From assembly GCF_036507355.1 (NCBI RefSeq), contig NZ_AP027877.1: a stretch of DNA of 64,000 bases; one strand, given 5' to 3'. A model generated the notes under the pieces. That model made no database searches. It saw nothing but the letters and a program-made list of their open reading frames with translations, and was not told where the DNA came from. A program made the position numbers and the translations under genes. This DNA comes from Escherichia coli (GTDB lineage Bacteria > Pseudomonadota > Gammaproteobacteria > Enterobacterales > Enterobacteriaceae). Each line of letters opens with the position of its first letter. Position 1 is the stretch's first letter. This document shows, piece after piece, positions 3,452 to 31,475 of this stretch.

Positions 3452-5893
3452 TCACTCTGCCACTTTTTTCTTCGCCGCACGCTTCGCTTTGGTCGCTGCA
3501 GCTATTTTCTGCGTTTTCGCCGATGGCTTTTTCGCTTTTCTCGCGTCTTTCTTCGCTGCTTTCGGCTTCGTTTTTTTCTCACCGCGGAAGGCGCTGTCTG
3601 GCTCAAAGTTTACCTTTTTACCGACCTGACGACGCTTGCCGCCTTTTTTACCTGCATCGCCTTTTTTCGCTTTCTCGCGCGCCGTTTTACCGACGTTGCG
3701 CGGTGCGCGTTCGCTGGAGATCAGGCTAAAGTCGATTTTGCGCTCGTCCATATTAACCGCTTCGACGCGAACTTCCACGCGATCGCCCAGGCGATAAGTC
3801 TGACCGCTGGATTCACCCATCAGGCGTTGCCCTACCTGGTCAAAGCGATAGTAGTCATTGTCCAGCGAAGAGACATGGACCAGACCATCGATGAACAAGT
3901 CGTCCAGACGGACGAAGAAGCCAAAGCCAGTGACGCTGGAAATTACGCCTTTAAAGACGTTACCTACCTGGTCGAGCATAAAGTCACACTTCAGCCAGTC
4001 AGCCACATCGCGCGTTGCTTCGTCGGCACGACGTTCTGCCATCGAACAGTGCTGACCCAGTTGCAGCATCTCTTCCATCGAATAATGGTAGCCGCCGGTT
4101 TCAGTGGTGTTACCCTGATGCCCCTGCTCTTTCGCCAGCAGATACTTAATGGCGCGGTGCAGCGTCAGGTCAGGATAACGACGAATCGGCGAAGTAAAGT
4201 GCGCATAGGACTGCAATGCCAGACCGAAGTGACCACGGTTTTCCGGATCGTAAATCGCCTGTTTCATCGAGCGCAGCAGCATGGTTTGCAGCATTTCTGC
4301 GTCAGGACGATCGGCAACAGACTCCAGCAACTCTGCATAGTCGCGCGGTTCCGGCTTGTTACCGCCCGGCAATTCCAGCCCCAGTTCCGCCAGCACTGAA
4401 CGGAAAGAGGTAATCGCTTCGGTGCTCGGCTTGTCGTGAATACGGAACAGTGCCGGTTCTTTGGCTTTCTCAACGAAACGCGCCGCCGAGATATTCGCCA
4501 GAATCATGCACTCTTCAATTAACTTGTGCGCGTCGTTACGCTGGGTCTGTTCGATACGCTCAATACGGCGTTCAGCGTTGAAAATGAACTTCGCTTCTTC
4601 GCTCTCAAATGAGATCCCGCCGCGTTCTTCACGGGCTTTATCCAGCACTTTATAGAGGTTATGCAACTCTTCGAGATGCTTAACCAGCGGGGCGTACTGC
4701 TCGCGCAGATCCTGATCGCCCTGCAGAATATGCCAGACTTTGGTGTAGGTCAGACGCGCGTGAGAGCTCATCACCGCTTCGTAGAATTTGTAGCCAGTCA
4801 GGCGGCCTTTCGACGAAACCGTCATCTCGCACACCATACACAGGCGGTCTACCTGCGGGTTGAGCGAACACAGGCCGTTAGAGAGCACTTCCGGCAGCAT
4901 CGGGATAACCTGCGAAGGGAAGTACACCGACGTGCCACGGTTACGCGCTTCTCTGTCCAGCGGCGTTGGCGGACGCACATAGTAGCTGACGTCAGCAATC
5001 GCGACCCATAAACGCCAGCCGCCGCCGCGTTTTTTCTCGCAGTAAACTGCATCGTCAAAGTCACGGGCGTCTTCGCCATCAATGGTGACCAGCGGTAAAT
5101 CGCGCAGATCAACACGGCCCGCTTTTGCTTCTTCCGGCACTTCTTCTTTCAGCCCGGCAACCTGTTGCTCAACAGCCTGCGGCCAGATGTACGGAATTTC
5201 ATGGGTACGCAGAGCGATATCAACCGCCATGCCGGTGCCCATATTGTCGCCCAGCACTTCGACGATTTTACCCACCGCTTTGGTACGGCGAGTCGGGCGT
5301 TGGGTCAGTTCAACAACCACCACAAAGCCCATCCGCGCGCCCATGATCTGATCGGGCGGGATTAAGATATCGAAGCTCAGACGGCTATCGTCAGGAACCA
5401 CAAAGCCGACGCCCGCTTCGGTAAAGTAGCGACCAACAATCTGGCTGGTTTTTGGCACCAGTACGCGGACAATACGCGCTTCACGACGACCTTTACGGTC
5501 AGCGCCCAGCGGCTGCGCCAGCACCTGATCGCCATGAATGCAGGTTTTCATCTGCTCGCTGGAGAGATACAAATCATCTTTACGCCCTTCAACCCGCAGA
5601 AAGCCGTAGCCATCACGGTGGCCAATAACGGTACCTTTCACCAGGTCGAGGCGTTCCGGCAGCGCATAGCACTGACGACGAGTAAAGACCAGTTGACCAT
5701 CGCGCTCCATCGCGCGCAGGCGGCGACGCAGGCCTTCAAGCTGCTCTTCGCCTTCAATGTGCAGTTCTACCGCCAGCTCATCACGGCTGGCCGGTTTTTC
5801 ACGTTTGGTTAAATGTTCGAGGATAAATTCCCGACTAGGGATGGGATTCGCGTATTTTTCAGCTTCGCGTTCCTGGAAAGGATCTTGTGACAT
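3452..5893 (-). CDS. rnr: Ribonuclease R
   Basis: Track ORF trimmed to the internal ATG at 5893 ([17 protein letters not shown]..., 813 aa) with GGAGG 7 nt upstream; lysine-rich C-terminal tail. Confidence 0.93.
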
Positions 5894-22187: not shown

Positions 22188-23156
22188 TTGTTAAATTCAT
22201 TTAAACTTTCGCTACAGTACATTCTGCCGAAACTATGGCTTACTCGCCTGGCGGGTTGGGGCGCAAGCAAGCGGGCAGGATGGCTGACAAAACTGGTTAT
22301 CGATCTGTTCGTTAAATACTACAAGGTCGACATGAAAGAGGCGCAAAAGCCGGACACCGCCAGCTACCGCACCTTTAACGAATTCTTTGTCCGTCCGCTG
22401 CGTGACGAAGTACGCCCAATCGATACCGATCCGAATGTCCTGGTTATGCCTGCCGATGGCGTTATCAGCCAGTTGGGTAAAATCGAAGAAGATAAAATCC
22501 TGCAAGCCAAAGGCCACAACTACAGCCTCGAAGCCCTGCTGGCAGGCAACTATCTGATGGCGGACCTGTTCCGCAACGGTACGTTTGTGACCACTTACCT
22601 CTCCCCGCGTGACTACCACCGCGTACACATGCCGTGCAACGGTATTCTGCGTGAAATGATCTACGTGCCGGGCGATCTCTTCTCCGTTAACCATCTCACC
22701 GCTCAGAACGTGCCGAATCTGTTTGCCCGTAACGAACGCGTGATCTGCCTGTTCGATACCGAATTTGGCCCAATGGCGCAGATTCTGGTCGGGGCGACGA
22801 TTGTAGGCAGCATTGAGACGGTCTGGGCGGGCACCATTACGCCGCCGCGCGAAGGTATCATCAAGCGCTGGACCTGGCCTGCCGGGGAAAACGACGGTTC
22901 TGTGGCACTGCTGAAAGGCCAGGAAATGGGTCGCTTTAAACTCGGTTCCACCGTTATCAACCTGTTTGCACCGGGTAAAGTGAATCTGGTTGAGCAACTG
23001 GAAAGCCTGTCTGTCACGAAAATTGGCCAGCCGCTGGCAGTATCTACCGAAACCTTTGTTACGCCAGACGCTGAACCGGCCCCGCTTCCTGCTGAAGAGA
23101 TCGAAGCAGAACACGACGCCAGCCCATTGGTTGACGATAAAAAAGACCAGGTCTAA
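22188..23156 (+). CDS. psd: Phosphatidylserine decarboxylase proenzyme
   Basis: 322-aa [18 protein letters not shown]... with LGST self-cleavage motif; TTG start. Confidence 0.94.
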
Positions 23157-23177
23157 TCCATCAAAGGAAACGCTGAC

Positions 23178-26100
23178 GTGCGCCTGATTATCACTTTTCT
23201 GATGGCCTGGTGCCTCAGTTGGGGGGCGTACGCCGCGACGGCCCCCGATAGCAAACAAATCACCCAGGAACTGGAGCAGGCAAAAGCGGCGAAACCCGCG
23301 CAGCCAGAAGTCATAGAGGCACTCCAGTCTGCCTTAAATGCGCTTGAGGAACGAAAAGGTTCCCTTGAGCGCATCAAGCAATATCAAGAAGTCATTGATA
23401 ATTATCCGAAACTCTCCGCTACTCTGCGCGCACAATTAAACAACATGCGTGACGAGCCGCGCAGCGTGTCGCCGGGGATGTCTACCGACGCGCTGAATCA
23501 GGAAATTCTCCAGGTCAGCAGTCAGTTGCTGGATAAAAGCCGTCAGGCCCAGCAAGAGCAGGAGCGCGCCCGCGAGATTGCCGATTCGCTGAATCAACTG
23601 CCGCAACAGCAAACCGACGCCCGCCGTCAGTTAAACGAGATCGAGCGCCGCCTGGGAACGCTTACCGGCAATACTCCGCTCAATCAGGCACAAAATTTCG
23701 CGTTGCAGTCTGACTCTGCACGTCTTAAGGCGCTCGTTGATGAACTGGAGCTGGCGCAGCTGTCTGCCAATAACCGCCAGGAATTAGCGCGCTTGCGCTC
23801 TGAGCTGGCTGAAAAAGAGAGCCAGCAACTGGATGCGTATTTGCAGGCCTTGCGTAATCAATTGAACAGCCAACGCCAGCTTGAGGCAGAGCGGGCGCTG
23901 GAAAGTACCGAATTACTAGCAGAAAACAGTGCCGATTTGCCGAAAGATATCGTCGCGCAATTCAAAATTAACCGCGAACTATCGGCGGCGCTGAATCAAC
24001 AGGCGCAGCGGATGGATCTCGTTGCCTCGCAACAGCGTCAGGCTGCCAGCCAGACGTTACAGGTCCGGCAGGCGTTGAATACGCTGCGTGAACAGTCGCA
24101 ATGGCTGGGATCGTCCAATCTGCTCGGTGAAGCGTTGCGGGCGCAGGTGGCACGGCTACCGGAAATGCCGAAACCACAACAGCTTGATACCGAAATGGCG
24201 CAGTTGCGTGTGCAACGGTTACGTTATGAGGATCTGCTTAATAAACAGCCGCTGCTACGGCAAATTCATCAGGCCGACGGTCAGCCGCTGACCGCTGAGC
24301 AAAACCGTATTCTGGAAGCACAGCTACGCACTCAGCGTGAGTTGCTGAACTCATTGTTGCAGGGTGGTGACACGCTACTGCTGGAACTGACCAAGCTGAA
24401 AGTCTCCAACGGGCAACTGGAAGATGCGCTGAAAGAAGTGAACGAAGCGACGCACCGCTATCTGTTCTGGACCTCTGACGTGCGCCCGATGACCATCGCC
24501 TGGCCGCTGGAAATCGCCCAGGATCTGCGTCGTCTCATTTCGCTGGACACCTTCAGTCAGTTGGGCAAAGCCAGTGTGATGATGCTGACCAGCAAAGAGA
24601 CGATTTTGCCGCTGTTTGGCGCGTTGATTCTGGTCGGTTGCAGTATTTACTCGCGCCGCTATTTCACCCGTTTTCTTGAACGTTCGGCGGCGAAAGTCGG
24701 CAAAGTGACTCAGGATCACTTCTGGCTGACGTTACGCACTCTTTTCTGGTCGATTCTCGTCGCGTCACCGCTGCCGGTGCTGTGGATGACGCTGGGTTAC
24801 GGCTTGCGCGAGGCGTGGCCTTATCCGCTGGCGGTCGCGATTGGCGATGGCGTAACGGCCACCGTGCCGCTGCTGTGGGTAGTGATGATTTGCGCTACTT
24901 TTGCCCGCCCGAACGGCTTGTTTATCGCTCATTTTGGCTGGCCGCGCGAACGTGTTTCTCGTGGGATGCGCTACTACCTGATGAGCATCGGGCTTATTGT
25001 GCCACTGATTATGGCGCTGATGATGTTCGATAATCTCGACGACCGCGAATTTTCCGGTTCGCTGGGACGGCTTTGCTTTATCCTCATTTGCGGTGCGCTG
25101 GCGGTGGTCACCCTCAGCCTGAAAAAGGCCGGGATCCCGCTGTATCTCAACAAAGAAGGCAGCGGCGACAATATTACCAACCATATGTTGTGGAACATGA
25201 TGATTGGCGCGCCACTGGTTGCCATTCTGGCGTCGGCGGTGGGTTATCTGGCAACGGCACAGGCGCTGTTAGCGAGGCTTGAAACCTCGGTTGCCATCTG
25301 GTTCCTGCTACTGGTGGTTTATCACGTTATCCGCCGCTGGATGCTGATCCAACGACGCAGGCTGGCGTTTGACCGGGCGAAGCATCGCCGGGCAGAGATG
25401 TTAGCGCAACGTGCGCGTGGCGAAGAGGAAGCACATCATCACAGTAGCCCGGAAGGGGCAATTGAAGTCGATGAAAGCGAAGTCGATCTCGATGCCATCA
25501 GTGCGCAATCCTTGCGGCTGGTGCGCTCAATTTTGATGTTGATCGCCCTGCTTTCGGTCATTGTGCTGTGGTCAGAAATCCATTCCGCTTTCGGCTTCCT
25601 CGAAAATATTTCGCTGTGGGATGTCACCTCCACGGTACAGGGCGTAGAAAGTCTGGAGCCGATAACCCTCGGTGCGGTGCTGATTGCCATTCTGGTGTTT
25701 ATCATCACCACGCAGCTGGTGCGCAACCTGCCCGCGCTGCTGGAACTGGCGATTTTGCAGCACCTGGATTTAACGCCGGGTACGGGTTACGCCATCACCA
25801 CCATCACCAAATATCTGCTGATGCTGATTGGCGGGCTGGTCGGCTTCTCAATGATTGGTATTGAGTGGTCGAAATTGCAGTGGCTGGTCGCCGCGCTCGG
25901 TGTTGGTCTCGGTTTTGGTTTGCAGGAAATTTTCGCCAACTTTATCTCTGGCCTGATCATCCTGTTCGAAAAACCGATTCGCATTGGCGATACGGTAACG
26001 ATCCGCGATCTTACTGGTAGTGTGACGAAAATTAACACCCGCGCCACCACCATCAGCGACTGGGACCGTAAAGAGATAATCGTGCCGAACAAGGCGTTTA

Positions 26101-26501
26101 TTACCGAGCAGTTTATTAACTGGTCGCTCTCTGACTCGGTTACGCGCGTGGTGTTGACGATTCCGGCCCCTGCCGATGCCAACAGTGAAGAAGTGACGGA
26201 AATCCTGCTCACCGCAGCGCGTCGCTGCTCGCTGGTGATCGACAACCCGGCACCGGAAGTCTTCCTGGTGGATCTGCAACAGGGGATTCAGATTTTCGAG
26301 CTGCGTATTTACGCCGCTGAGATGGGTCACCGTATGCCGCTACGCCATGAGATCCACCAGCTGATTCTGGCTGGCTTCCATGCTCACGGTATCGATATGC
26401 CATTCCCGCCCTTCCAGATGCGTCTGGAAAGCCTCAACGGTAAACAAACGGGGAGAACGCTGACGTCTGCGGGCAAAGGTCGTCAGGCGGGAAGTTTGTA
26501 A
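23178..26501 (+). CDS. mscM: Miniconductance mechanosensitive channel MscM (YjeP)
   Basis: 1107-aa ORF with signal peptide, long coiled-coil periplasmic region, multiple TM helices and a C-terminal MscS-like domain; GTG start. Confidence 0.92.
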   Translation: MRLIITFLMAWCLSWGAYAATAPDSKQITQELEQAKAAKPAQPEVIEALQSALNALEERKGSLERIKQYQEVIDNYPKLSATLRAQLNNMRDEPRSVSPGMSTDALNQEILQVSSQLLDKSRQAQQEQERAREIADSLNQLPQQQTDARRQLNEIERRLGTLTGNTPLNQAQNFALQSDSARLKALVDELELAQLSANNRQELARLRSELAEKESQQLDAYLQALRNQLNSQRQLEAERALESTELLAENSADLPKDIVAQFKINRELSAALNQQAQRMDLVASQQRQAASQTLQVRQALNTLREQSQWLGSSNLLGEALRAQVARLPEMPKPQQLDTEMAQLRVQRLRYEDLLNKQPLLRQIHQADGQPLTAEQNRILEAQLRTQRELLNSLLQGGDTLLLELTKLKVSNGQLEDALKEVNEATHRYLFWTSDVRPMTIAWPLEIAQDLRRLISLDTFSQLGKASVMMLTSKETILPLFGALILVGCSIYSRRYFTRFLERSAAKVGKVTQDHFWLTLRTLFWSILVASPLPVLWMTLGYGLREAWPYPLAVAIGDGVTATVPLLWVVMICATFARPNGLFIAHFGWPRERVSRGMRYYLMSIGLIVPLIMALMMFDNLDDREFSGSLGRLCFILICGALAVVTLSLKKAGIPLYLNKEGSGDNITNHMLWNMMIGAPLVAILASAVGYLATAQALLARLETSVAIWFLLLVVYHVIRRWMLIQRRRLAFDRAKHRRAEMLAQRARGEEEAHHHSSPEGAIEVDESEVDLDAISAQSLRLVRSILMLIALLSVIVLWSEIHSAFGFLENISLWDVTSTVQGVESLEPITLGAVLIAILVFIITTQLVRNLPALLELAILQHLDLTPGTGYAITTITKYLLMLIGGLVGFSMIGIEWSKLQWLVAALGVGLGFGLQEIFANFISGLIILFEKPIRIGDTVTIRDLTGSVTKINTRATTISDWDRKEIIVPNKAFITEQFINWSLSDSVTRVVLTIPAPADANSEEVTEILLTAARRCSLVIDNPAPEVFLVDLQQGIQIFELRIYAAEMGHRMPLRHEIHQLILAGFHAHGIDMPFPPFQMRLESLNGKQTGRTLTSAGKGRQAGSL

Positions 26502-26607
26502 TGCATGAAGCTGCCAAATGATGTCAACGTGGCTCATTTAGCAGCTTAACATCATCTTCAGTTATCACCAGCCCCGGAGAATATCATCCATACGCATTAC
26601 TTCCTGA

Positions 26608-26636
26608 CAACTCATCGCCGGAGAGACGATGAGTTG
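26608..26636. terminator. Perfect 10-bp stem hairpin between the convergent mscM and yjeM (possible bidirectional terminator)
   Basis: caactcatcg-ccggagaga-cgatgagttg; no clear U-tract on either side. Confidence 0.3.
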
Positions 26637-26651
26637 CAGGATTTCATAGGA

Positions 26652-28154
26652 TCAGTCGAGAGCCAGTTCAGGTTTGTTCGCCATGCGACTGCAATAGTTC
26701 TGGTAAATCGCCATCGCTAACAGCGAGAAGAAGACAGGGCCGCCAATCATCCACAATGTGCTGTCCCAGTCTCCGGCTTCAACCACAGGCTGAATAATGG
26801 TGAAGACGTTCGCAAATGTCACCACCAGAACGACAACCACCGTCGCAATCATTGCCGACATACGCGTTTTGAAAATCACAAATGGTCTGTCGAGATCCTG
26901 ACGTGCTTTAAAGAATGGGAAAGCCAGCGCGAGGAACAGGTAAGGAAGCGTCATAGACACGTTCGCCATCAGCGTCAGCTTGTTAAAGAACGCCGATGCG
27001 GTACCGCCACCAAACGAAACCAGCAGGATGAAAACAGTAACCAACCCGCACTGCATCCACATGGCGATAGACGGCATCCCCATCGCATTCAGGCGCGTCA
27101 TCGGTTCCGGCCACAACGCTTTCGGCGTCCCCTGGATGATGGCTTTCAGCGGTGAATAGCAAAGCGTAAAGAACGCACCGGTATAGGCGAGGAACATCGA
27201 AAGTCCGGTAATACGCGCAAACCATACGCCCAGCGACAATGACGCTTCAGGTGACAAATGCAGTGCGTTACCCAGCGTCACCCCGAGGCTCTTCATCAGC
27301 ACATAGGTAATATTGCCAAGGTTAACGGAACCATTACTTAATACCTGCTGCCAGTTTGTGCTGACGCCCCATAAAAATATTGCCAGCGAATAACCGATTG
27401 AAATAACAATAGCGGCAAAAACAATACCTTTGGCAAAGTTCTTTTCTGGATTTTCCGTTTTATCGACCAGACCACCAACCGCTTCAATTCCGCCATAGGC
27501 AAAAATAGCAAATACCACAAACGATAGCATTGCCAGACCGGACTGATAACCCGGGTTCGGTGATGCAAGGAAATTAATATCCTGCGCGAAATGCCCACCA
27601 TTTAATAACAAAATAGTAATGCTTACTAACAGCAATACTAAATTCAGACACATTACTGCAATACCGCCCACCGCAGTAATGCGGGCAATTTTATTAATCC
27701 CCTTAGAAGCAACGACGGTGACCAGAATCATCCATGCCACTGCCAGCAGACCAACCACCTGCGTAGGCTCCAGTCCGGCAATACGCCAGTGCTGGGTCAT
27801 GTCGCTACCATAGAGGAATGTTGAGAACGGTACCCAAACTTTCGCGGAGGTACTCACCATCCAGATGATATAAGAGGAAAACCACATAAACGTACCAATG
27901 AAGGCAAAACGTGGTCCGACACTATTATTCATCCAGGAATAGATACCACCTTCTTCTTTGCGATAAGCAGCTCCCATTTCAGCCATCATTAAGGCGAATG
28001 GAATAAAGAATAACAATGCAGAAAATATATAAAAGGGAATCGCACTATAACCCATTAAGTAATAAGCCGATGGGCTATTGGCAAATCCAAATACGGAAGT
28101 AAAGATCATCAATATGAGTCCTATCAGACTCATCTTTTTTATCGTGTGAGGCAT
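26652..28154 (-). CDS. yjeM: Inner-membrane APC-family transporter YjeM
   Basis: Track ORF trimmed to the ATG at 28154 (MPHTIKKMSLIGLILMIFTSVFG..., 500 aa); polytopic membrane protein. Confidence 0.88.
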   Translation of the reverse strand: MPHTIKKMSLIGLILMIFTSVFGFANSPSAYYLMGYSAIPFYIFSALLFFIPFALMMAEMGAAYRKEEGGIYSWMNNSVGPRFAFIGTFMWFSSYIIWMVSTSAKVWVPFSTFLYGSDMTQHWRIAGLEPTQVVGLLAVAWMILVTVVASKGINKIARITAVGGIAVMCLNLVLLLVSITILLLNGGHFAQDINFLASPNPGYQSGLAMLSFVVFAIFAYGGIEAVGGLVDKTENPEKNFAKGIVFAAIVISIGYSLAIFLWGVSTNWQQVLSNGSVNLGNITYVLMKSLGVTLGNALHLSPEASLSLGVWFARITGLSMFLAYTGAFFTLCYSPLKAIIQGTPKALWPEPMTRLNAMGMPSIAMWMQCGLVTVFILLVSFGGGTASAFFNKLTLMANVSMTLPYLFLALAFPFFKARQDLDRPFVIFKTRMSAMIATVVVVLVVTFANVFTIIQPVVEAGDWDSTLWMIGGPVFFSLLAMAIYQNYCSRMANKPELALD

Positions 28155-28372
28155 GAAACCATCCTTCATTTCAGCGCGTGTATAAAACGCGCCCACTGAA
28201 CTGCACTGCCCAACATTGAGCGGGCAGCGTAAAAACCAATACAGAATTGATACCTGGATGATATCAAATATCCAGTCTTAAATTGTGGCCTTTAACAGAA
28301 AAATGAAAACATATGCTACAGAATGGCGCTTATCACGCCATTCTTCGCTGTTAATTCAGTAATTTTTCAGAA

Positions 28373-29350
28373 TTATGCCCGGTCAACGCTAAAGGCGATG
28401 ACTTCAGCCAGTGTCTCCGCGCCCAGCGCCAACATCACCAGACGATCAACGCCTAATGCCACGCCGGAACAGTCAGGCATACCGACTTTCAAGGCTTCAA
28501 TCAGATTCTGGTCAATGGGGTGCTGCGGCAAACCGCGCACCGCGCGCTTACGGTTATCTTGTTCAAAGCGTTGTTGCTGCTCACGGGCATCCGTCAATTC
28601 ATGGAAACCATTCGCCAGCTCAATACCTTTATAATAAACCTCAAAGCGTTCAGCGACCCGATGATCTTCGGTACTGATTTGCGCCAGTGATGCCTGGCTG
28701 GCTGGAAAGTGGTACACAAAGGTCGGTTTTTCTTTACCAATATTTGGCTCTACGCCAAAGGTAAACAGCAATTGTAGCAACGTGTCGCGGTCTTCTTCGG
28801 TATCAGCAACATTGCTCAAATCCAGTTTCGCTGCCACTTCCCGCAGTTGCGTTTTGTCGGCAGAGAGCGGGTCAATTTCCAGATAACGCAAGAAAGCTTG
28901 TTGATAAGAAAGGCTTTCTGCTGCCGGGCAGTCCAGCACTTGTTGTAAGAGATCGTCCACCTCGTTCATCAACCGGTACATATCATAGTGCGGTCGATAC
29001 CACTCAAGCATAGTGAACTCAGGGTTGTGATAACGCCCCATCTCTTCATTACGGAAGCTGCGGCACAGCTGGAATACCGGCCCACAACCAGCAACCAGCA
29101 GGCGTTTCATATGGTATTCCGGGCTGGTCATTAACCAGAGATTCATCCCCTGCGAATGCCCGGGGCCAACGAAACGTGTCTCAAACGGGACCAAATGAAT
29201 ATCGGTTACCGTCGCCTGGCTCATACAAGGCGTCTCCACCTCCAGCACTCCACGATCGGCAAAGAAACGACGGATCTCCGCCATAATCGCCGCGCGTTTT
29301 AATAAGTTAGGAATGGATGCGCTCGGCTGCCAGGATGCCGTTTCGCTCAT
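28373..29350 (-). CDS. epmA: EF-P lysine-34 lysyltransferase EpmA (PoxA/GenX)
   Basis: Track ORF trimmed to the ATG at 29350 ([30 protein letters not shown]..., 325 aa); class II aaRS-like catalytic core. Confidence 0.93.
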
Positions 29351-29528
29351 AGTTAAATCTCCAGTTTTTGACAAGGGCACGAAGTCTACTCGCAACGCGA
29401 CGGCGAGACAAATTTTACGCAGGAATCAAACAGCGGTGGGCAGTAACTAAAAAAAGCACGATCTGATGGTTTAGTAATTAAATTAATCATCTTCAGTGAT
29501 AATTTAGCCCTCTTGCGCACTAAAAAAA

Positions 29529-29569
29529 TCGATCTCGTCAAATTTCAGACTTATCCATCAGACTATACT
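29529..29569 (+). promoter_or_regulatory. frdA promoter region: FNR-like site (tcgatctcgtcaaa) and -10 tatact
   Basis: Near-palindromic FNR half-sites at 29529-29542 about 22 bp upstream of tatact at 29564-29569; frdA GTG at 29675. Confidence 0.45.
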
Positions 29570-29674
29570 GTTGTACCTATAAAGGAGCAGTGGAATAGCG
29601 TTCGCAGACCGTAACTTTCAGGCACTTACCCTGAAGTACGGGGCTGTGGGATAAAAACAATCTGGAGGAATGTC

Positions 29675-31475
29675 GTGCAAACCTTTCAAGCCGATCTTGC
29701 CATTGTAGGCGCCGGTGGCGCGGGATTACGTGCTGCAATTGCTGCCGCGCAGGCAAATCCGAATGCAAAAATCGCACTAATCTCAAAAGTATACCCGATG
29801 CGTAGCCATACCGTTGCTGCAGAAGGGGGCTCCGCCGCTGTCGCGCAGGATCATGACAGCTTCGAATATCACTTTCACGATACAGTAGCGGGTGGCGACT
29901 GGTTGTGTGAGCAGGATGTCGTGGATTATTTCGTCCACCACTGCCCAACCGAAATGACCCAACTGGAACTGTGGGGATGCCCATGGAGCCGTCGCCCGGA
30001 TGGTAGCGTCAACGTACGTCGCTTCGGCGGCATGAAAATCGAGCGTACCTGGTTCGCCGCCGATAAGACCGGCTTCCATATGCTGCACACGCTGTTCCAG
30101 ACCTCTCTGCAATTCCCGCAGATCCAGCGTTTTGACGAACATTTCGTGCTGGATATTCTGGTTGATGATGGTCATGTTCGCGGCTTGGTAGCAATGAACA
30201 TGATGGAAGGCACGCTGGTGCAGATCCGTGCTAACGCGGTCGTTATGGCTACTGGCGGTGCGGGTCGCGTTTATCGTTACAACACCAACGGCGGCATCGT
30301 TACCGGTGACGGTATGGGTATGGCGCTAAGCCACGGCGTTCCGCTGCGTGACATGGAATTCGTTCAGTATCACCCAACCGGTCTGCCAGGTTCCGGTATC
30401 CTGATGACCGAAGGTTGCCGCGGTGAAGGCGGTATTCTGGTCAACAAAAATGGCTACCGTTATCTGCAAGATTACGGCATGGGCCCGGAAACTCCGCTGG
30501 GCGAGCCGAAAAACAAATATATGGAACTGGGTCCACGCGACAAAGTTTCTCAGGCCTTCTGGCACGAATGGCGTAAAGGCAACACCATCTCCACGCCGCG
30601 TGGTGATGTGGTTTATCTCGACCTGCGTCACCTCGGCGAGAAAAAACTGCATGAACGTCTGCCGTTCATCTGCGAACTGGCGAAAGCGTACGTTGGCGTC
30701 GATCCGGTTAAAGAACCGATTCCGGTACGTCCGACCGCACACTACACCATGGGCGGTATCGAAACCGATCAGAACTGTGAAACCCGCATTAAAGGTCTGT
30801 TCGCCGTGGGTGAATGTTCCTCTGTTGGTCTGCACGGTGCAAACCGTCTGGGCTCCAACTCCCTGGCGGAACTGGTGGTCTTCGGCCGTCTGGCCGGTGA
30901 ACAAGCGACAGAGCGTGCAGCAACTGCCGGTAATGGCAACGAAGCGGCAATTGAAGCGCAGGCAGCTGGCGTTGAACAACGTCTGAAAGATCTGGTTAAC
31001 CAGGATGGCGGCGAAAACTGGGCGAAGATCCGCGACGAAATGGGCCTGGCTATGGAAGAAGGCTGCGGTATCTACCGTACGCCGGAACTGATGCAGAAAA
31101 CCATCGACAAGCTGGCAGAGCTGCAGGAACGCTTCAAGCGCGTGCGCATCACCGACACTTCCAGCGTGTTCAACACCGACCTGCTCTACACCATTGAACT
31201 GGGCCACGGTCTGAACGTTGCTGAATGTATGGCGCACTCCGCAATGGCACGTAAAGAGTCCCGCGGCGCACACCAGCGTCTGGACGAAGGTTGCACCGAG
31301 CGTGACGACGTCAACTTCCTCAAACACACCCTCGCCTTCCGCGATGCTGATGGCACGACTCGCCTGGAGTACAGCGACGTGAAGATTACTACGCTACCGC
31401 CAGCTAAACGCGTTTACGGTGGCGAAGCGGATGCAGCCGATAAGGCGGAAGCAGCCAATAAGAAGGAGAAGGCGA

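Follow-up and report, generated by a model that had tools for sequence, protein, structure and literature searches.

The window (the whole stretch of DNA that was analysed, 64,000 nucleotides of Escherichia coli contig NZ_AP027877.1) carries two convergent genes, mscM (yjeP; 23178-26501, plus strand, 1107 aa) and yjeM (26652-28154, minus strand, 500 aa), both taken from the list of open reading frames and the RefSeq annotation, and named after the RefSeq annotation of E. coli loci that are 97-99% identical to the window. Judging by that list and the sequence itself, the two genes are separated by a spacer of 150 bp (26502-26651). A preceding sequence-only reading of this DNA had remarked on the shortness of the gap and on the absence of two small genes, yjeN and yjeO, which it placed between yjeM and mscM in K-12. 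The gap is real (the open reading frames end at 26501 and 26652), and the placement was right, as the order in K-12 MG1655 (b4156-b4159, NC_000913 4383839-4389370) is yjeM > yjeN > yjeO > < mscM: inspected for an equally short spacer, this reference, with the same flanking genes in the same convergent orientation, turned out to have an interval of 705 bp instead, occupied by complete copies of yjeN and yjeO (each 104 aa long, with a 4-nt overlap), both of which are missing from the window. That the window is not K-12 itself, as had also been supposed, is evident from an identity of 98.6% over 10.8 kb combined with a different structure of the junction.

Homology to K-12 runs through the TAA stop codon of mscM (98% identity, with the match ending exactly at the stop codon), breaks off there and restarts at ~26671-26689, inside yjeM, which is 100% identical to its K-12 counterpart from 26689 inward, the identity collapsing over 26652-26688. 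The pairwise alignment with K-12 thus bears out that the interval differs, but not in the form of the clean two-ORF indel that had been envisaged, because the end of yjeM diverges as well. The final ~12 codons of yjeM (26652-26688, compared with the K-12 locus L001:5306-5342) fall within a variable haplotype block, with the YjeM C-terminus reading ...MANKPELALD in the type-A form (window, E. albertii) versus ...VAKNPQWAVE in the type-B form (K-12). K-12 likewise has a stem-loop just after yjeM, at a position matching that of the window, but differs from the window in its own YjeM C-terminal tail, in the type of this hairpin (type B) and in a GC-rich GCCGGAT...ATCCGGC hairpin adjoining mscM.

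Three elements can be recognised in the yjeM-proximal 100 bp of the spacer: the hairpin that separates yjeM from yjeN, a ribosome-binding site and the opening ~13 codons of yjeN. This part (26552-26651) aligns at ~90% to the region downstream of yjeM in a yjeN-bearing type-A allele, with 41 nt of the alignment falling in the 5' end of yjeN. The yjeN relic itself (26552-26591, minus strand), compared with the complete genes of GPEC996, E. albertii and K-12, begins with an ATG (26591-26589) followed by ~13 codons, within which a 1-nt deletion shifts the frame into a TGA (26567-65) and a TAA (26564-62), leaving an 8-codon stub: intact yjeN reads CGG GAT CCA GTG ATA ACC GAA GAT, and the short alleles read CGG GGC (C/T)GG TGA TAA CTG AAG AT. 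Eight nucleotides upstream of the relic ATG, in the same arrangement as in the intact alleles, lies a Shine-Dalgarno-like AGGAAG (26600-26605, minus strand), which, to go by its sequence and placement, is the one-time yjeN ribosome-binding site. Out of 300 shuffles, at most one reached the local alignment score of the relic (z = 4-7), and a megablast search with the spacer matched annotated yjeN via query positions 83-147. The ribosome-binding site and the ATG are kept in all four of the short alleles that were aligned (the window, XH990, E69 and MOD1-EC7003), and the identical 1-nt frameshift is seen in each of them in the multiple alignment. As is expected of a gene-loss scar, the short allele has therefore kept a recognisable piece of yjeN (ribosome-binding site, ATG, ~13 codons and frameshift) at 26552-26605.

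On the opposite side, the first 14 nt counted from the mscM stop (26502-26515) are a remnant of the mscM-proximal intergenic sequence, matching E. whittamii at 14/14 and E. albertii at 13/14 positions, and in both of these species the corresponding nucleotides form the left arm of a terminator hairpin, GAAGCTGCC...GGCAGCTTC, located between yjeO and mscM. Between the two recognisable ends there is a middle segment of ~36 bp (26516-26551), present, among the fetched loci, only in other short alleles. A source for it was sought by local alignments against yjeN/yjeO cassettes and by blastn-short against 86 loci and the window, with only short alleles matching; no significant local similarity (z <= 0.2) was found to the cassettes of K-12, GPEC996, SCPM, E1V33 and S. 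arizonae, and the higher alignment scores obtained with E. albertii and E. whittamii stem from the 14 nt beside the mscM stop. The segment may represent decayed yjeN codons ~14-25, or else junction filler.

The sequence-only reading had seen in the spacer nothing other than one perfect 10-bp hairpin (26608-26636). This hairpin is present, but it is not alone, as there is a second stem-loop (I1) at 26508-26547, starting 6 nt after the mscM stop and formed by the imperfect arms AAGCTGCCAAATGA (26508-21) and TCATTTAGCAGCTT (26534-47) with 13/14 pairs and a 12-nt loop; its folding energy is -20.2 kcal/mol on the plus and -22.0 kcal/mol on the minus strand (z = -3.5 and -3.9, respectively). The stem-loop already noticed (I2, 26603-26640) starts 11 nt after the yjeM stop and is the type-A yjeM-yjeN intergenic hairpin, identical in the yjeN-bearing alleles of GPEC996 and E. 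albertii. Its core is a perfect 10-bp inverted repeat, CAACTCATCG/CGATGAGTTG (26608-17/26627-36), with a 9-nt loop, and on the yjeM-sense strand it extends to 12+5 pairs over 26603-26640, at -27.2 kcal/mol and z = -6.7 versus shuffles. The window thereby resembles loci with bidirectional intrinsic terminators or REP elements in having a stable stem-loop within ~10 nt of each stop codon. Neither stem, though, shows what an intrinsic terminator should have, i.e., a G+C-rich stem and a U run: the sequence after the stems is CAGGAUUUCAU or UCAGGAAG, with no U-tract on either strand, and a consensus scan of 26300-26900 found no terminator-like site. Direct reading of the two stems revealed no REP-like sequence either.

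A stem-loop occupies this common position next to yjeM in both haplotypes, being of type A in the window, GPEC996 and E. albertii and of type B in K-12, E1V33, E. whittamii and yjeO-only E. coli. The two types have in common a 5-nt apical loop and the inner stem ATCGTC/G(G/A)CGAT, and their outer pairs differ on both sides. Five of the 12 pairs of this yjeM-proximal hairpin have changed on both sides, with 98.8% of cells paired versus 23-64% in slid controls, albeit in a set of seven distinct sequences in which nearly all the variation is one A/B split. The double changes fit selection for structure, most simply for an element at the 3' end of the yjeM transcript, if the sequence comparison is any guide, and they would amount to approximately one evolutionary event; the two types could also differ because an unrelated hairpin took the place of the earlier one, instead of the pairs having been compensated step by step.

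Could the spacer then have been kept for a functional element of its own, such as a small RNA or the 8-codon yjeN mini-ORF, rather than being a passive scar? Its entire length folds better than shuffles on both strands (z ~ -3.7), the two stem-loops are stable, the ribosome-binding site and ATG are conserved as described, and a promoter scan gave a weak match on the minus strand at 26610-26583. This match, however, is one of just two from that scan, both at 9/12 positions, a search of 26300-26900 with the covariance models of Rfam 15 gave no match at E <= 1, and the spacer is less conserved between lineages (85-90% identity) than the flanking genes (94-97%), which is as expected under weak constraint, so that such an element seems improbable. 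The two AT-rich stem-loops, having no U-tracts, would rather be where the two convergent transcripts end, acting as 3'-end stabilisers or Rho-assisted stops and not as canonical intrinsic terminators.

The population counts were obtained with three queries (the 150-bp spacer, yjeN and yjeO) against 5426 complete E. coli genomes at a coverage of at least 80%, and the percentages that follow mirror what has been sampled for sequencing, not natural frequencies. The 150-bp spacer is found in 2394 of these genomes (44%), yjeN in 2153 (40%) and yjeO in 3021 (56%). The proposed pan-genome check on yjeN and yjeO thus finds both to be polymorphic, and the short allele is the commonest single state in sequenced E. 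coli. The yjeN genomes comprise 1862 with the K-12 type at an identity of at least 99% and ~290 at 80-95% (yjeN and yjeO, type A); subtraction, assuming that every yjeN genome also has yjeO, puts the yjeO-only allele at ~868 genomes (16%), and ~11/5426 genomes are left in some state other than short, yjeN+yjeO or yjeO-only. With at least five structural alleles within E. coli, the segment is indeed the strain-variable indel that it had been taken for. Examples are XH990 (NZ_CP019359) for the short allele, GPEC996 for yjeN+yjeO with the hairpin type of the window, Br_112 and ECO21 for yjeO only, and CRECJHTL34 (L006) for a rare allele of 2.6 kb, in which two genes of the YjeO family are accompanied by one for a 237-aa protein and by an IS630 pseudogene. 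The short allele is found in O157:H7, O145, O127:H6 and O6:H16 strains, and the yjeO-only allele in ST131. In the RefSeq short alleles (XH990, O157:H7, O127:H6) the spacer, likewise 150 bp long and free of annotated genes, is 97-98% identical to that of the window and differs from it by point differences only. The gap in the window is a very common, ordinary deletion allele, already visible in RefSeq annotation.

These counts also bear on a deletion that would be recent and specific to the lineage of the window, or a mere assembly collapse, independent of the other short alleles. No complete E. coli genome out of the 5426 is identical to the window in this region, as the best match reaches 98.0% identity over the spacer and at most 99.2% over 7 kb (23000-30000), which is what a private event might look like. 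Such an event is nevertheless extremely improbable, given that in the 2394 genomes the 150-bp structure matches over its full length (95-99% identity) and that the frameshift, along with both junctions, is common to XH990, E69 and MOD1-EC7003, no differing breakpoints having been observed. The window may derive from a Shigella or from an E. coli lineage outside this set of genomes.

Beyond E. coli, the junction was surveyed in GTDB species representatives with a YjeM (tblastn and spacer extraction, 51 loci). The order epmA-yjeM > < mscM is conserved across Enterobacteriaceae, and at 33 of the 51 loci the spacer measures 35-95 bp, with one GC-rich or REP-like hairpin and no cargo. Both yjeN and yjeO are found at the junction in E. 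albertii and two divergent Escherichia lineages, yjeO with a 3' stub of yjeN in E. whittamii, a yjeN-like gene only in S. enterica subsp. arizonae and a yjeO-like gene only in another S. enterica genome. Two further features of a gene-loss scar are thereby present: outgroups with the long form (the Escherichia just named, with Salmonella having family members at the junction), and conserved homologous flanks that bound either a long or a short allele in the population.

The survey could, at first sight, be read the opposite way, with the short spacer being the ancestral, never-occupied state and K-12-like strains having gained yjeN-yjeO by insertion, as those 33 species representatives have neither gene and the junction accepts foreign cargo elsewhere. 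The short allele of Escherichia, however, is unlike the 35-95-bp spacers of other genera, having two AT-rich stems without U-tracts in place of the one GC-rich or REP-like hairpin; the full cassette is found in E. albertii and other divergent Escherichia; and the relic, with its yjeN ribosome-binding site, start codon and ~13 frameshifted codons, largely refutes a never-occupied site, which makes this order of events quite improbable. Instead, because the spacer still holds the frameshifted 5' stub of yjeN, the short state of the window would be a loss and not an unoccupied site. A cargo-free spacer of 35-95 bp would be the ancestral state at a deeper level of Enterobacteriaceae; the cassette would have been gained earlier than the loss, in the Escherichia/Salmonella part of the family, since more distant genera do not have it, and the state seen in the window would be a later loss.

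The 150-bp spacer is very probably the scar of a single old deletion of ~580 bp. The anatomy of the spacer, its homologies and the allele frequencies are observed; we infer the role of the hairpins, the direction of change, the single origin and the mode of spread, the last two from shared derived characters in four sequences and from coverage statistics. One origin is suggested because the yjeN frameshift is common to the window, XH990, E69 and MOD1-EC7003, and the deletion should be old because the scar is also found in divergent Escherichia lineages: E69 carries scar and frameshift with flanks 93.7% and a spacer 85% identical to those of the window, and MOD1-EC7003 carries both with flanks at 97% and a spacer at 90%. 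Taken at the level of sequence, this indicates one old event whose product has been kept alongside intact alleles. The best model of the precursor is E. albertii, since it unites both end types with an intact cassette: E. albertii NBRC 107761 (L009) has the type-A yjeM tail and hairpin of the window and, directly behind the mscM stop, nearly the same 14 nt; unlike the window, it has kept both yjeN and yjeO intact, in a spacer of 728 bp, together with the whole terminator hairpin. From such an order (yjeM, hairpin, yjeN, yjeO, terminator hairpin and then mscM on the opposite strand), the deletion would have taken yjeN from about codon 14-25 on, the whole of yjeO and the greater part of the terminator hairpin between yjeO and mscM, and would have left, from the mscM side, 14 nt of the old spacer, the ~36 nt of the middle segment, the frameshifted yjeN start with its ribosome-binding site and the intact yjeM-yjeN stem-loop. 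The allele would then have persisted and spread, presumably by homologous recombination of the conserved flanks. The deletion may not have been a simple one-step event, because the ~36 nt at 26516-26551 match no cassette.

Alignment inspection shows that the yjeO-only alleles of E. coli (L004, L005) and of E. whittamii (L010) have different junctions, which sit in short similar stretches, GGAA(A/T)T in one and ATAC(A)GG in the other. Because these junctions differ, yjeN would have been eroded independently more than once, and the comparison points to independent, microhomology-associated losses in E. coli and E. whittamii.

The sequence-only reading had also remarked that small accessory cargo tends to come and go at such junctions, and at the level of the family it does, with both a pair of genes for the 237-aa protein and a DUF2645 protein and a raf-like operon turning up here. 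The former, with the gene for the 237-aa protein followed by the DUF2645 gene, is found at the junction in several Citrobacter, Enterobacter and Pseudocitrobacter genomes and a few E. coli (L006:1355-3776 in E. coli CRECJHTL34, L032, L034, L043, L045, L081). The 237-aa protein has no family assignment, although its relatives are spread over Enterobacterales; the solved folds nearest to its model (pLDDT 87) are, with weak scores (E = 0.02-0.3, TM-score 0.4-0.5), the lytic transglycosylase MltE, goose-type lysozymes, Tse3 (a muramidase effector of type VI secretion) and phage endolysins, and an invariant Glu lies in an AAEVGG motif. On the strength of the model, the two proteins could form an effector/immunity or a lysis-type pair. 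YjeN was considered as a decayed fragment of this lysozyme-like protein, and this was rejected (hhalign probability 0.4%). The raf-like operon, 4.8 kb with a GH36 alpha-galactosidase, a LacY-type permease and a LacI-type repressor, occupies the junction in Kluyvera georgiana (L018:6580-11179), and the insert in Kluyvera genomosp. 3 (L054) is about as long (4774 bp).

Copies of flanking genes are also seen: in Enterobacter sp. ENT03 the part of epmA that encodes residues 198-325 is repeated immediately behind yjeM (L034:6525-6908), and in the rare large E. coli allele the final 46 nt of mscM recur, at 83% identity, beside the inner YjeO-family gene (L006, ~3465-3510). These duplicates suggest that cassettes arrive by recombination with donors of a different gene order. 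In Superficieibacter electus, the 250-bp spacer (L037:6486-6735) contains about three tandem units of ~65 bp (GTGCAAGCGCAGCGCCGCCAGGCA...GTTTTCAGAAAATGTAGGCCT), which looks like a REP/BIME-like array. As regards mobile elements, the spacer of the window contains no IS, integrase or target-site repeats, its sole repeats being the two hairpins; the IS630 pseudogene is restricted to the large, rare allele of E. coli. Carriage of yjeO by plasmids or phages was considered and rejected, as the records in question were chromosome-sized ones mislabelled as plasmids and two phage-labelled ones of 1.5-2 kb.

As for the genes that the strain has lost, YjeN is an orphan and YjeO a small DUF2645 inner-membrane protein. 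YjeN found no match in Pfam, NCBIfam, PADLOC or PDB sequences, has a poor AlphaFold model (pLDDT 62) and is limited to Escherichia and Salmonella, with only 61 clusters in a set of 5.8 billion proteins; the sole family match of YjeO is DUF2645, with close relatives in Escherichia and Salmonella. An envelope-stress study has yjeN-yjeO in a table of its sigma-E regulon section, with a 2.6-fold value for yjeO (PMC2731931), yjeN has been placed among genes of unknown function with a stress or osmotic role guessed at (PMC9976479), and a pan-genome study that handles yjeO as an accessory gene reports an association between it and growth in milk (PMC11390585); a literature search for "DUF2645" found nothing. 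It is conceivable, though doubtful, that the yjeM/mscM junction is an old polymorphic slot of Enterobacteriaceae for two-gene cassettes, whose presence or absence across Escherichia lineages is kept by selection and not drift, the window having the slot emptied. The constant member of such cassettes may be the small three-helix DUF2645 membrane protein (YjeO), with either the 237-aa protein or the orphan YjeN as its variable partner, and, by analogy, this architecture recalls effector/immunity or endolysin/holin pairs.

What does the emptied junction mean for the organism? Two missing genes that are both of unknown function carry little weight by themselves. The strain of the window, like ~44% of sequenced E. 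coli (O157:H7 included), does without yjeN and yjeO, and K-12 is unrepresentative of E. coli at the yjeM/mscM locus. Since the loss of the two genes leaves behind a pseudogene stub that can be recognised, annotation pipelines could be made to flag it, and the four common alleles could act as a lineage marker, though each of them spans serotypes. The repeated, independent erosion of yjeN suggests that the cassette is dispensable in many niches.
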